Translations under genes and position numbers: made by a program
Notes under the pieces: model-generated
Told to the model about the DNA's origin: nothing
What the model saw: the letters and a program-made list of their open reading frames with translations, nothing else
Database searches by the model: none
Part shown: in pieces, positions 8,930 to 23,771 of the stretch
How the letters are laid out: every line of letters begins with the position of its first letter
Numbering within the stretch: the first letter of the stretch is position 1
Source of the DNA: Promethearchaeota archaeon
Lineage (GTDB): Archaea > Asgardarchaeota > Odinarchaeia > Odinarchaeales > JBHLKK01
Direction: 5' to 3'
Assembly: GCA_048939465.1 (NCBI GenBank)
Contig: JBHLPL010000002.1
Coordinates: forward strand, 5,608-37,607
DNA length: 32,000 bases

Positions 8930-10829
8930 ACCGATTATTCTAAAACTAGGCGGTAGTGTAATCACAAGCAAGAATGAATTATTTAAGGCAAAACCTGAAG
9001 TTGTAGACCAGATTGCCAAAGAGGTCGCGTCAGCAAAGCGTAAAAATCTGGTTATAGTCCATGGCGGCGGATCGTTTGGTCACCCCGTGGCCAAAAAATA
9101 TAAAATACATAAAGGCTTCCGCCACCCAAATCAAATAATGGGATTTTCAGAAACACACAAGGCTATGGAACAACTCAATCAAATAGTAATCGGCGCATTC
9201 CTAAGACAGAGAATCCCTGTTATTTCAATTCCTCCATCAAGCTGCGTCACCACAAACCGTGGCATAATTACAGTGTTCAACATTCCGGTAAGGGAGTACC
9301 TTAAGAAGGGCTTTATCCCCGTGATCTATGGAGATGCAGTCATAGACGAAGAATGGGGCATGGCTATCCTTTCGGGAGACCAGATTGTGAAATATCTCGC
9401 GATGCATCTAGAAGCCAGAAGAGTAATTTTCGGTGTTGATGTTAATGGAATCTTCACAGCAGACCCTAAGCAGAACCAAGATGCAAAACTCATTCGCAGG
9501 ATCACACCTAGGAATTTTGATCAGATTCTGTCCAGCTTAGAGACCAGTGATGTGGGCGATGTGACTGGTGGGATGGCGGGAAAAATGAAAGAACTCGTAG
9601 AAATAGCAAAGAGGGGCATAGAAGTAAGCATTATAAACGCTACCAAATCTAAAAATGTGGAATCCGCGTTAACAGGAAAAGATGTTTCTGGTACGCATGT
9701 TAGTGGTTGGGAACGCAAAGTGAAAAAAGCGCCAGTAGAGCCAAGAAAACTGGATCACATAAGGATGTGTTTGGAGAAATCTGTTCAAGCAAGAAATAAG
9801 ACTGCTGGACTGGAAGATGTTGAGCTAATCCATAATGCAATACCTGAAATATCAAAAAAGGATGTTAATCTTGGTGTAAACTTCCTCAATTATGATCTAG
9901 ACGCGCCAATCATTATTGCAGCAATGACTGGGGGGCATCCTGTTGCAAAAAGGATTAATGAGACATTAGCGAAGGCATCAAAAGAATTGAATATTGGATT
10001 GGGTGTTGGAAGTCAGAGAGCTGCCCTAGAAGACCCGGAGCTAGCTGATACATTCAGAGTTGTCCGTGAAGTCGCACCGGAGGCGTTCATCATAGGAAAT
10101 CTCGGTGCTCCCCAGCTCTCCAGAGGGTACGATTTAGAGGAGATAGAAAAAGCCATAAAGATGATAGACGCAAATGCAATAGCTGTGCACCTAAACACAT
10201 TGCAGGAAGCAATCCAACCGGAAGGAGAAACTGATTTTTCAGGGGTTGTTAGTGCATTTAGGAGGATTTCGGATAAGATTGATATCCCAGTAATCGCAAA
10301 AGAGACGGGTGCAGGGATAGCAAGGGAGGAAGCAGAGACTCTTGAAAAGGCTGGAGTTACTGCTATCGATGTAGGGGGTGCGGGGGGAACTAGCTGGGCG
10401 GGAGTGGAAACGCATCGGGCAGCTGAGAGCGGGGACGGGCTGAGAACTCGCATAGGAAGGACTTTCTGGGACTGGGGCATACCTACTGCAGTAAGTACAT
10501 TCGAGGTAGCTCAGTCAACAGGACTGCCAGTAATAGCTACCGGCGGAGTACGCTCAGGTCTTGACGCAGCAAAGCTAATAGCTCTGGGCGCAAGTGCCGT
10601 TGGCGTTGCCTTCCCGTTGCTCCGACCGGCTTATGGAGGGGATGTAAACGAGGTGATTAATACTCTCGATACAATGATAGAAGAACTAAGAATTACCATG
10701 CATTTGGTTGGAGCTAAGACAATCGACGAATTGAAAAGCGCAAGGGCAATTATCAGTGGAAAGACTGGTCGATGGCTTCAGCTCAGAGGCTATGAAGTTT
10801 CCGGATTCGCAAATCGAATAATAGAATAG
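8919..10829 (+). CDS. ipk-fni: Fusion of isopentenyl phosphate kinase and type 2 isopentenyl-diphosphate isomerase
   Basis: N-domain LKLGGSVIT, HGGGSFGH, SGD, DVTGGMAGK; C-domain RKLDHI, MTGG, GVGSQR, KETGAG, GGTSWA, ATGGVRSG; one 636-aa ORF. Confidence 0.9.
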   Translation: MRNRPIILKLGGSVITSKNELFKAKPEVVDQIAKEVASAKRKNLVIVHGGGSFGHPVAKKYKIHKGFRHPNQIMGFSETHKAMEQLNQIVIGAFLRQRIPVISIPPSSCVTTNRGIITVFNIPVREYLKKGFIPVIYGDAVIDEEWGMAILSGDQIVKYLAMHLEARRVIFGVDVNGIFTADPKQNQDAKLIRRITPRNFDQILSSLETSDVGDVTGGMAGKMKELVEIAKRGIEVSIINATKSKNVESALTGKDVSGTHVSGWERKVKKAPVEPRKLDHIRMCLEKSVQARNKTAGLEDVELIHNAIPEISKKDVNLGVNFLNYDLDAPIIIAAMTGGHPVAKRINETLAKASKELNIGLGVGSQRAALEDPELADTFRVVREVAPEAFIIGNLGAPQLSRGYDLEEIEKAIKMIDANAIAVHLNTLQEAIQPEGETDFSGVVSAFRRISDKIDIPVIAKETGAGIAREEAETLEKAGVTAIDVGGAGGTSWAGVETHRAAESGDGLRTRIGRTFWDWGIPTAVSTFEVAQSTGLPVIATGGVRSGLDAAKLIALGASAVGVAFPLLRPAYGGDVNEVINTLDTMIEELRITMHLVGAKTIDELKSARAIISGKTGRWLQLRGYEVSGFANRIIE

Positions 10830-11725: not shown

Positions 11726-11827
11726 TTGCTCCACTCTCTGCCATTTTAGGTAGACGATTCTAGGACTATTTATTTGTCCTTTTAACTCTATCGGCAAAAA
11801 TCTGAAGTCTCATCTTGACCATCTCAA

Positions 11828-11860
11828 GGAGACTCCATCCGATAGGGCGGAGTAGTTTAC
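11828..11860 (+). mobile_element. Isolated IS200/IS605-like right-end hairpin
   Basis: GGAGACTCCATCC-GATA-GGGCGGAGTAGTTTAC; hairpin matches 19006-19026 and terminal GGAGTAGTTTAC matches 18746-18757; TTTAC overlaps the ndk TAA. Confidence 0.7.
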
Positions 11861-18745: not shown

Positions 18746-19044
18746 GTAAACTACTCCTCCCTCGCAGAAGGGGCTCATGACTGTGCTTGACCGCAATTCC
18801 CTCCCGAGCTCCGGTTTCATCACAAGTCAAATCAAGGGGCGATTTGCAGCGCCCCAGCCCGGTGATCCGTGCATAGCGCCGAGCTTAAGAGTTTTCCTCG
18901 CCTATCCTCGCACGGGTCATTGACCGTTTCCGCCTCCAAGAGAGGTGTCCCTTCAGACCTATTAGTATATATAGCACAAACTCAGTTAAAGATCCCTCAA
19001 TTCCTCTCCGCCCTTTCGGACGGAGTCCCCCAGAGGTGGTTCCT
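18746..19044 (-). mobile_element. About 300-bp IS200/IS605-like mini-element (copy B)
   Basis: Left-end hairpin ACTCCGTCC-GAAA-GGGCGGAG; TATATATA spacer; right end GAGCCCCTTCTGCGAGGGAGGAGTAGTTTAC; collinear with 22841-23145 (+). Confidence 0.8.
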
Positions 19045-22276: not shown

Positions 22277-22840
22277 TCATCGAGCCGAGAAGTTCTTCTT
22301 TAACCAATCTGCAAACTTGTACAAAACCTTCTTTCTGTGAGAAAGTTTGTTTTTTTCATCAAAACCCATTTCAGCATAGGTTCTACCGTCACCCTCCAGC
22401 GGGACAAAAATAGGATCGTATCCCCAGAGTTTACCCCGTTCTTCTTCGGAAATTGTACCTTCTACATTGGCAGAAATGCATGTAGATACTCGATCATGAG
22501 AGAAGGCGATAACTGACTTAAAGACTGCCTTCCTTGTTGCGACTCCCTCCATCAACCTTAGAATCCCCTTATTCCCTATAGTTTTGAAGACGTACGAAGA
22601 GTACGGGCCAGGAAAGCCGTTAAGTGCTTCGATAAACAGCCCGGTATCTTCCACAAAAACTGGTTTTTTGATCTTTTTAGAAACTAGAGACACACTGTAT
22701 GAGGCTATTTTCTCTAGACTTTCATGTTGAGGTTCAATCCTCTCGATATCCAGATGTTCAATCTCAAAGCCTATCTTTCCCAATATTTCAGATGCCTCTC
22801 TTATCTTATTCTTATTACTTGTAGCAAAAAGCAGCTTCAT
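22277..22840 (-). CDS. rdgB: dITP/XTP pyrophosphatase (Ham1/RdgB)
   Basis: FATSNKNK, EDTGLFIEALNGFPGPYS, WGYDPIF, KNKLSHR. Confidence 0.95.
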   Translation of the reverse strand: MKLLFATSNKNKIREASEILGKIGFEIEHLDIERIEPQHESLEKIASYSVSLVSKKIKKPVFVEDTGLFIEALNGFPGPYSSYVFKTIGNKGILRLMEGVATRKAVFKSVIAFSHDRVSTCISANVEGTISEEERGKLWGYDPIFVPLEGDGRTYAEMGFDEKNKLSHRKKVLYKFADWLKKNFSAR

Positions 22841-23145
22841 TTGATCGCCTCGAGGAAACTCCGACCAAAAGGACGGAGAGGGATTAAGGAGTCGATGAAT
22901 GCTATTGGGACATACGCACCAATAGATTTGAAGTCACACCTCTCTTCGATGTGGAAACAGCTAATGACGGATGAGGGTGGGCGCCATGGACTGATAGCCA
23001 CTGTATCGCCTGACGCTATATGCAGATTACTGGGTTCAGACGCTTTGGACTTGCTGCCAATCTGGCCTGTGATGCGACCAAAGCCCATTTGGGAATTAAG
23101 GTCCAGCATAGTCATAAACTCCTTCACTAAGATGGAGTATTTCAT
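22841..23145 (+). mobile_element. 305-bp IS200/IS605-like mini-element (copy A) inserted at the bud32/rdgB overlap
   Basis: Follows TTCAT (22836-22840) and ends in TTCAT (23141-23145); left-end hairpin ACTCCGACC-AAAA-GGACGGAG; collinear with copy B. Confidence 0.82.
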
Positions 23146-23771
23146 CTATCTTCGATATATCGTCCACGTCTCTCGACCTCCCCTATGCGAAGTATAGCAT
23201 CCTCCGCATCCTTGCCCAAGACCTCACGATAACCAGCCAAAACTGCTTCGAAAAACTCTTCAGCGTGTTGATAGTGAGTACTTTGTAAGGCACGCTGCAT
23301 AAGGTGGAGATCCACTCCTTTATGTTCAATTTCTGATGAGTGCTCACCCAATCCAAAATCTATGAAGTATATTTGCTTTTCAGAGGTCAAGATCATATTT
23401 GAGGTAGTTAAATCACCATGTATAAGTCCGTTCTTATGGAGACGTCCGATTGAGCGTCCTACACAGGTACAGACTCTTTTCTGTTCTTGTCTTGTAATTT
23501 CATTAATAACATTCTTAAGCTTCTGCCCATCAATGTATTCGTAAATGATGGTGGTTTTAGGAACATCTACTTGGCATATTGCCGGAGTGGAAACCCCAGC
23601 TTTTCTAGCACTGCTGAACATCTTGGCTTCATGAATCGTCCTGTATTGCCTGATCCTTAGATCCAGTTCAGGAATTCGATATCTCTTTGCTACCCTGCAC
23701 TTCCGTACGACAACTCTGTCGTACCACTTCTCCTTAAACAAATAAGCTTCAGCACCTTTGGCCATGAGCAA
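23142..23771 (-). CDS. bud32: KEOPS kinase Bud32 (piD261/PRPK)
   Basis: KGAEA, RTIHEAKM, IHGDLTTSNM, IDFGLG, VDLHLM, RGRY. Confidence 0.95.
   Translation of the reverse strand: MLMAKGAEAYLFKEKWYDRVVVRKCRVAKRYRIPELDLRIRQYRTIHEAKMFSSARKAGVSTPAICQVDVPKTTIIYEYIDGQKLKNVINEITRQEQKRVCTCVGRSIGRLHKNGLIHGDLTTSNMILTSEKQIYFIDFGLGEHSSEIEHKGVDLHLMQRALQSTHYQHAEEFFEAVLAGYREVLGKDAEDAILRIGEVERRGRYIEDR

Follow-up and report, generated by a model that had tools for sequence, protein, structure and literature searches.

A PATE very probably inserted into the bud32-rdgB stop/start overlap of an Asgard archaeon, with a survey of its repeat family

PATEs (palindrome-associated transposable elements) have been described in Haloquadratum walsbyi, where they are derived from IS1341-type (tnpB-only) IS605 elements by deletion of the core and where 52-bp terminal-only forms also occur (Dyall-Smith et al. 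2011, PMC3119063). In Geobacillus stearothermophilus the elements ISGst1-5 have the target motifs (TAMs) TTCAT/TTTAT and a right-end motif (TEM) which differs at positions 3 and 5; the PATEs of Geobacillus are said often to carry omega-RNAs, the tnpB 3' end together with the right end is the region encoding TnpB guide RNAs, and a whole set of non-autonomous elements is held to be mobilised in trans by a single TnpA (Meers et al. 2023, 10.1101/2023.03.14.532601). For the ISC/IS605B transposons the target N|ATGA was established from filled versus empty loci (Kapitonov, Makarova and Koonin 2016, PMC4810608), a paper which makes no mention of start codons or stop/start overlaps. Here we describe an element between the bud32 and rdgB genes of an Asgard archaeon, along with the family to which it belongs.

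The window, which is the whole 32,000-nucleotide stretch of DNA that was analyzed, carries on its minus strand the rdgB/Ham1 (ITPase) gene at 22277..22840 (Pfam Ham1p_like, 1e-45, residues 3-179) and a bud32-like kinase gene (Bud32/RIO-type) at 23142..23771, the latter assigned by Pfam Pkinase/RIO1 and by the junctions of relatives. The C-terminus of bud32 reads ...RGRYIEDR, and its final Arg stands at the same position as in the relatives. By direct reading of the minus strand, bud32 ends in ...GAA GAT AGA TGA AAT ACT... and rdgB begins in ...GAGGCG ATCAA ATG AAG CTG..., its ATG being at 22840-22838; the pentamer TTCAT is found at 22836-22840 and again at 23141-23145. An earlier note on this DNA had claimed that an element follows TTCAT and itself ends in TTCAT, which is correct for this copy, and that deletion of 22841-23145 restores an ATGA overlap of the two genes, which was borne out by direct reading: the in silico deletion joins CGAAGATAG to ATGAAGCTG, and GAT AGA TGA then overlaps ATG AAG CTG. 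The pre-insertion junction would thus be reconstructed as ...GAT AG|ATGAAG..., an overlap of bud32 stop and rdgB start, on the basis of the element boundaries and of outgroups which differ in the junction detail.

The element is a 305-nt copy of a repeat that we call family 1 and occupies 22841..23145 in plus orientation, as delimited by nhmmer and MAFFT over 18 + 12 copies and by a metagenome contig with the joint 22840->23144. Its target motif TTCAT (22836..22840, plus strand) reads ATGAA on the gene strand, which is rdgB's own start codon plus AA. A subterminal hairpin of the left end, CTCCGACC-AAAA-GGACGGAG, was found at 22859..22878 (plus strand) by ssDNA folds and alignment, its family consensus being CTCCGTCC-GAAA-GGACGGAG, and the subterminal hairpin of the right end, ACTCCTTC-ACTAA-GATGGAGT, lies at 23118..23138 (plus strand; ssDNA folds). 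The terminal pentamer at the TEM position, 23141..23145 on the plus strand (alignment columns 307-311), is TTCAT here and TTTAC in the family consensus. Local G+C rises and GC skew reverses within these 305 nt relative to the flanks, and T runs on the gene strand of this copy do not exceed four bases.

Searches by BLAST and iterated nhmmer gave 18 full-length copies (about 291-305 nt) and many partial matches in the 1.96-Mb genome, and 12 further full-length copies in two congeneric species (G001 and G002); no full-length copy was found in the four genomes of the neighbouring family that were searched. The recurrence of the boundaries in other copies, on which the earlier note had made its reading depend, was found throughout, as all 30 copies start and end at the same alignment columns. 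Flanks are unrelated among copies and homology begins directly after TTCAT, which precedes about half of them, or after the one- or two-base variants which precede the remainder; the element opens with CTAAACCACCTCAAGGAGACTCCGTCCGAAAGG... and closes with ...GGGAGGAGTAGTTTAC. No target duplication was found at family-1 copies, and the bases past the right end are unrelated. In ssDNA folds, hairpins of the CTCC...GGAG type are kept across copies near both ends, at 18 nt from the left terminus and 7 nt from the right. Mean column identity in the alignment of the 30 copies (A1) is 81%. The right end is TTTAC in 24 of the 30, differing from the target TTCAT at positions 3 and 5, and a TTCAT right end is peculiar to the bud32-rdgB copy, where it amounts to two substitutions; the suggestion that the right-end cleavage motif matches the target is therefore not true of the family. 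The bud32-rdgB copy is the most diverged of the full-length copies (72% identity to the near-consensus C66 copy), and the conserved TTAAATA box, CACCTC and the terminal TTTAC are all altered in it.

Some further members and relatives of the family were recorded. A second full-length family-1 copy lies in the window at 18746..19044 on the minus strand (nhmmer match C69:24353-24651); it has no long ORF at its left-end boundary and its flank is CTCGT, not TTCAT. At 11814..11860 on the plus strand (C69:17421-17467) a 47-nt terminal-only derivative follows CTCAT and consists of the left-end start and hairpin joined to the right-end tail GGAGTAGTTTAC; similar terminal-only forms are present at C138:78769-78803, C48:18927-18961, C105:1003-1035, C73:16337-16369 and C23:2007-2039. 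In columns 96-115 of A1 the copies C84, C139b, G2_C121 and G2_C114 have a CTCCC-TGAGA-GGGAG hairpin, which resembles the end hairpins, instead of the usual CACACCTCTCTCTGATGTGG. The same genome holds a second family of PATEs, about 215 nt long, at ~20 loci (for example C137:2641-2851, C39:12682-12892 and C59:249-443), with the target TTTAT or TTTAC and a right part matching the C2 tnpB element at its 3' end (C2:27187-27280), and at least one further family with the same left-end hairpin, such a left end being found at 1279-1350 of the window. A covariation of the TAM with a left-end 'guide' between TTCAT and TTTAT families (AAGGAGA versus AAGAAGA) was considered and dropped, there being counter-examples among the copies.

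A parent-type tnpB-only element is obtained when contigs C70 and C55 are joined, in the order TTCAT, left end, 385-codon tnpB frame and right end. The sequences C70:1-95 and C55:5867-6043 overlap by 77 nt within one tnpB gene, the assembly having broken inside the parent element, and the two contigs are probably adjacent in the genome. Positions 7-69 of our element have 82% identity to the left end of this tnpB element, and positions about 144-299 (~155 nt) match its tnpB 3' end and right end; the C5 copy still encodes CPECKVCGHTPNSDLNGARN, which is the TnpB zinc finger and RuvC-III stretch. A plus-strand ORF of 157 aa (22724-23197) has no Pfam family and in part keeps to the frame of the relic TnpB C-terminus. 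The search for a cognate TnpA, which the earlier note had put forward as a check, gave a single intact Y1_Tnp ORF in the genome (C105:1180-1545, 126.7 bits), the putative mover of the family, which may act on family 1 in trans; several TnpB genes are also present. Since the ends match those of a tnpB-only IS200/IS605 element and an intact Y1 transposase is found in the genome, the 305-nt repeat is a PATE, that is a gene-less internal-deletion derivative of such an element. It is short (305 nt), the ORFs of both its strands are without a Pfam family, and codon periodicity is absent. The recurring boundaries in ~30 copies, the lack of duplication and the match of the ends to the tnpB element uphold the proposed IS200/IS605-type insertion 3' of the target.

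The precision of family-1 insertion follows from filled and empty pairs at four other loci. Four G002 insertions (L150, L153, L154 and L158) have empty counterparts in this genome at ATGAA-like sites, and when the element is removed in silico the joined G002 flanks align gap-free to the empty locus. Loss was also seen: at C139:about 9844-9866 the element is almost wholly deleted in place, leaving a 22-nt relic (right-end tail GTAAACCGCTCC plus left-end tail) where both congeners keep a full copy. The bud32-rdgB copy itself is presumably immobile now, as judged from the mutations in its right-end motif, left end and TATA-like box.

On the minus strand an unbroken ATG-to-TGA frame of 102 aa (22837..23145) spans the element, exactly fills the gap and has ATGA overlaps at both ends, so that it may be taken for an ordinary protein gene of a bud32-X-rdgB operon, translationally coupled on both sides. 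We regard this as close to impossible, because the ORF has no Pfam family, its single near-identical match of 90 aa among 5.8 billion proteins probably comes from this very species, the DNA itself is repeated across the genome in copies frameshifted against one another, there is no codon periodicity, and the ORF is missing at the orthologous site in both congeners. It was judged not to be a conserved gene and is read as a by-product of the element.

Another reading takes the spacer as a structured RNA used by the host, such as an antisense omega-RNA-like guide aimed at the bud32 3' end with TnpB in trans, or another ncRNA. In its favour, the body shares homology with the tnpB 3' end and right end, where omega-RNAs are encoded, its G+C and GC skew are unlike those of the flanks, and several conserved stems have a few compensatory changes; the structures returned by RNAalifold for 18 and for 30 copies were of low energy and covaried weakly. 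We nevertheless hold it to be very improbable, as no Rfam family was found at E<=1, the fold z-scores of the whole stretch are an unremarkable -1.5 and -1.1 on the two strands, the copy in question, itself the most diverged of the full-length ones, no longer has the conserved TTAAATA box, and at the sites of G001 and G002 the body has undergone deletion or replacement. Judging from its homology, the body may formerly have produced omega-RNA. RNase P RNA, a candidate prompted by a GAGGAAACTCC motif and by the shift in G+C and skew, was rejected with no Rfam match at E<=1, the genome's RNase P RNA being on contig C76.

With high confidence, we consider that a PATE entered the ATGA overlap of the bud32 stop and the rdgB start. 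In the proposed route, a Y1 TnpA supplied in trans would carry out single-strand 'peel-and-paste' transposition, and the element would enter 3' of TTCAT on the top strand, which is directly 5' of ATGAA on the gene strand, with the cut at ...GAT AG|ATGAAG.... The rdgB gene would have retained its own ATG and lost its upstream context, and bud32 would have lost its TGA and the last base of its Arg codon. The right end would then complete the Arg codon and at once give a stop, and the left end would give rdgB an SD-like motif in place of the lost upstream context.

The two ends were compared with the family in this respect. Read along the gene strand, the right end is G TAA AC in the family consensus and A TGA in the bud32-rdgB copy, so an ATGA overlap in the frame xx|A TGA becomes xx|G TAA after insertion of a consensus element and has its stop in place. 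The two substitutions from TTTAC to TTCAT turned AGG TAA into AGA TGA, a change which is silent for bud32 and which created the ATG of the 102-aa ORF. The present stop codon of bud32, TGA at 23142..23144 on the minus strand, consists wholly of element bases (consensus copies read xxG TAA in the same register), and base 23145, the last of the Arg codon before the stop, is also element-derived; the claim that the element's end recreates the bud32 TGA is thereby confirmed. The left end reads GAGGTGGTTTAG|ATG on the gene strand of the family, with GAGGTG(N6) 12 nt before the target's ATG. In the bud32-rdgB copy it is GAGGCG(N5), at 22846..22851 on the minus strand and at -11 from the rdgB ATG with a spacer of 5 nt, a candidate replacement Shine-Dalgarno sequence. 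Among 1002 long ORFs of the genome, GAGG is most frequent at -14..-11 from the ATG and GAGGTG at -12/-11, so the left end sets an SD-like motif at the distance preferred by the host. The GAGGCG which had been pointed out 5 nt before the rdgB ATG is therefore present and well placed, and its use by ribosomes for rdgB is plausible from this spacing. The wider statement that both signals are rebuilt stands in that the ends give a stop and an SD-like motif, but this is a trait of the family and not special to this copy. CACCTC, the complement of the SD, is kept in 12/15 copies next to genes versus 10/15 of the other copies (p=0.68); as retention is no better beside genes, host selection on the SD motif is not supported.

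Start codons and gene junctions are occupied across the family. Of the 18 copies, ten stand directly at the ATG of a gene with a Pfam domain starting near residue 1, and the genes abutted include IDH, NTP transferase, PFL, POR alpha, POR beta and an aminotransferase. Four of the 18 stand in reconstructed ATGA junctions with the upstream stop taken from the right end, namely ACL-like/IDH, ferredoxin/POR-alpha (porD/porA), POR-alpha/POR-beta (porA/porB) and bud32/rdgB. The por operon (ferredoxin, POR alpha and POR beta), outside the window at C139:3413-6473, has a PATE copy in each gene junction, right ends giving the upstream stop and left ends abutting the downstream ATG. The background in the genome is 7412 ATGAA sites, among which 259 are start-like and 13 free-junction-like. 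The start-codon excess may be largely due to loss of insertions within genes (survivorship) rather than to targeting.

Survivorship was weighed against a harmless design, in which PATE family 1 would be built 'operon-junction-safe' in translation by evolution. The target, read in reverse complement, would then be ATGAA, the most frequent start context, the left-end GAGGTG would lie at the host's SD distance, the right end would give an in-register TAA, and the body of ~300 nt would be open in the host frame. We consider such a design unlikely; if true, it would mean that the stop/start overlaps of essential operons (por, ACL/IDH and bud32/rdgB) were colonised without polar effects.

Another proposal is co-option, in which the 102-codon ORF of the gene strand serves as a translational relay coupling bud32 and rdgB, and the ends together with a ~3n open body are adaptations to operon junctions. 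The consensus is open in 1 of 6 frames, the one bounded by the TAA of the right end and the TGA within the target ATGA. The gene strand has 90 open codons or more in 17/30 copies versus 3/30 for the other strand, and per-copy shuffles give P about 0.02-0.06 for many copies. Stop-creating variants are mildly rarer by occurrence in that frame (2.5% versus about 4% pooled), and junction sites are heavily occupied, with 4 occupied against 13 free. However, variability is not raised at third positions (P=0.81) and codon periodicity is lacking; distinct stop-creating variants are equally frequent (3.2% versus 3.1-4.4% in the other frames); the copies share ancestry, so these counts are not independent; and a single open frame among six is only mildly unlikely in a 300-nt consensus. 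The orthologous spacers of G001 and G002 are also without such an ORF, the genes being intact. Co-option is accordingly held to be improbable, and the locus is best read as a PATE insertion whose ends left both genes undamaged.

The age of the PATE insertion was judged from the orthologous sites of relatives, 40 of which were sampled across the phylum, and from the contigs of four metagenome runs. The bud32 and ham1 genes are adjacent in most of the sampled relatives. In the neighbouring family the gap between them is 0-11 nt with an ATGA start in frame in 3/4 genomes, and in distant relatives the two genes overlap by a clean ATGA (L041) or by GTGA (L040). In both G001 and G002 the site is occupied by element DNA, with the boundaries and orientation of the bud32-rdgB copy. 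The G002 site has an internally deleted copy of 128 nt. In a metagenome contig 22841-23143 is exactly replaced by 128 other letters (joint 22840->23144; the contigs come from independent studies). At the G001 site (L020, G001:C7:13153-13371) there is a 219-nt chimera of ~43 nt of family-1 left end with the body and right end of family 2, which suggests recombination between PATE families via the shared hairpin; as its spacer body comes from another family, this site calls for a further event, either recombination or re-insertion. The spacers of the congeners are thus not unrelated, which had been named as grounds for refutation, but element-derived, decayed or rearranged within the same boundaries.

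The empty site expected in relatives was found in neither congener, and no clean joint was found in the contigs of the four metagenome runs, contigs being prone to drop rare variants; every site seen there had the full form, the 128-nt form or a further diverged form. A Ham1 scan of the metagenome contigs for an empty site gave nothing closer than 57% identity. The flanking proteins of the three species are 82-85% identical. Since both congeners and the metagenome contigs are filled at the same boundaries, the insertion is older than these species and excision products are not expected; it probably occurred in an ancestor of this Asgard archaeal genus. Among named congeners the nearest is a 'Candidatus Hodarchaeota' MAG, and mangrove sediment is the probable source of the DNA.

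The value of the locus is that it gives a base-resolution case of an IS200/IS605 mini-element within a four-base stop/start overlap, with both housekeeping genes undamaged, and that harmless docking is general among the copies of this family in its Asgard host, two of which lie in one por operon. It raises the question of whether host translation signals have shaped the ends of the element. The 102-aa ORF does not merit annotation as a gene, and gaps of this sort in operons of these genomes are PATE candidates. An archaeal family with the TAM TTCAT, the TEM TTTAC and a putative omega-RNA body is also added to those known.

In comparison with the known systems, the family is like the Haloquadratum PATEs in being gene-less and without target duplication, in its near-terminal palindromes related to IS605-type elements of the same genome, in its origin by core deletion and in its terminal-only forms, which are 52 bp there and about 47 nt here. 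It differs from them in its Asgard host, in its target TTCAT, in the ~155 nt of tnpB 3' end and right end that are kept, and in the position of its copies, mostly on start codons or ATGA junctions, which is not described for PATEs in PMC3119063. With the Geobacillus elements it shares the target motifs TTCAT/TTTAT and a mismatch of right-end motif and target at positions 3 and 5, although TTCAT belongs to an IscB element there and to a TnpB element here, and the Geobacillus work concerns a bacterial host and includes experiments, whereas the archaeal family was studied by sequence comparison. Like ISC/IS605B it enters immediately 5' of an ATGA on one strand and leaves no duplication, the elements there being, unlike ours, full-length iscB or tnpB elements. 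The bud32-rdgB insert neatly illustrates an established class of element and does not represent a new one.
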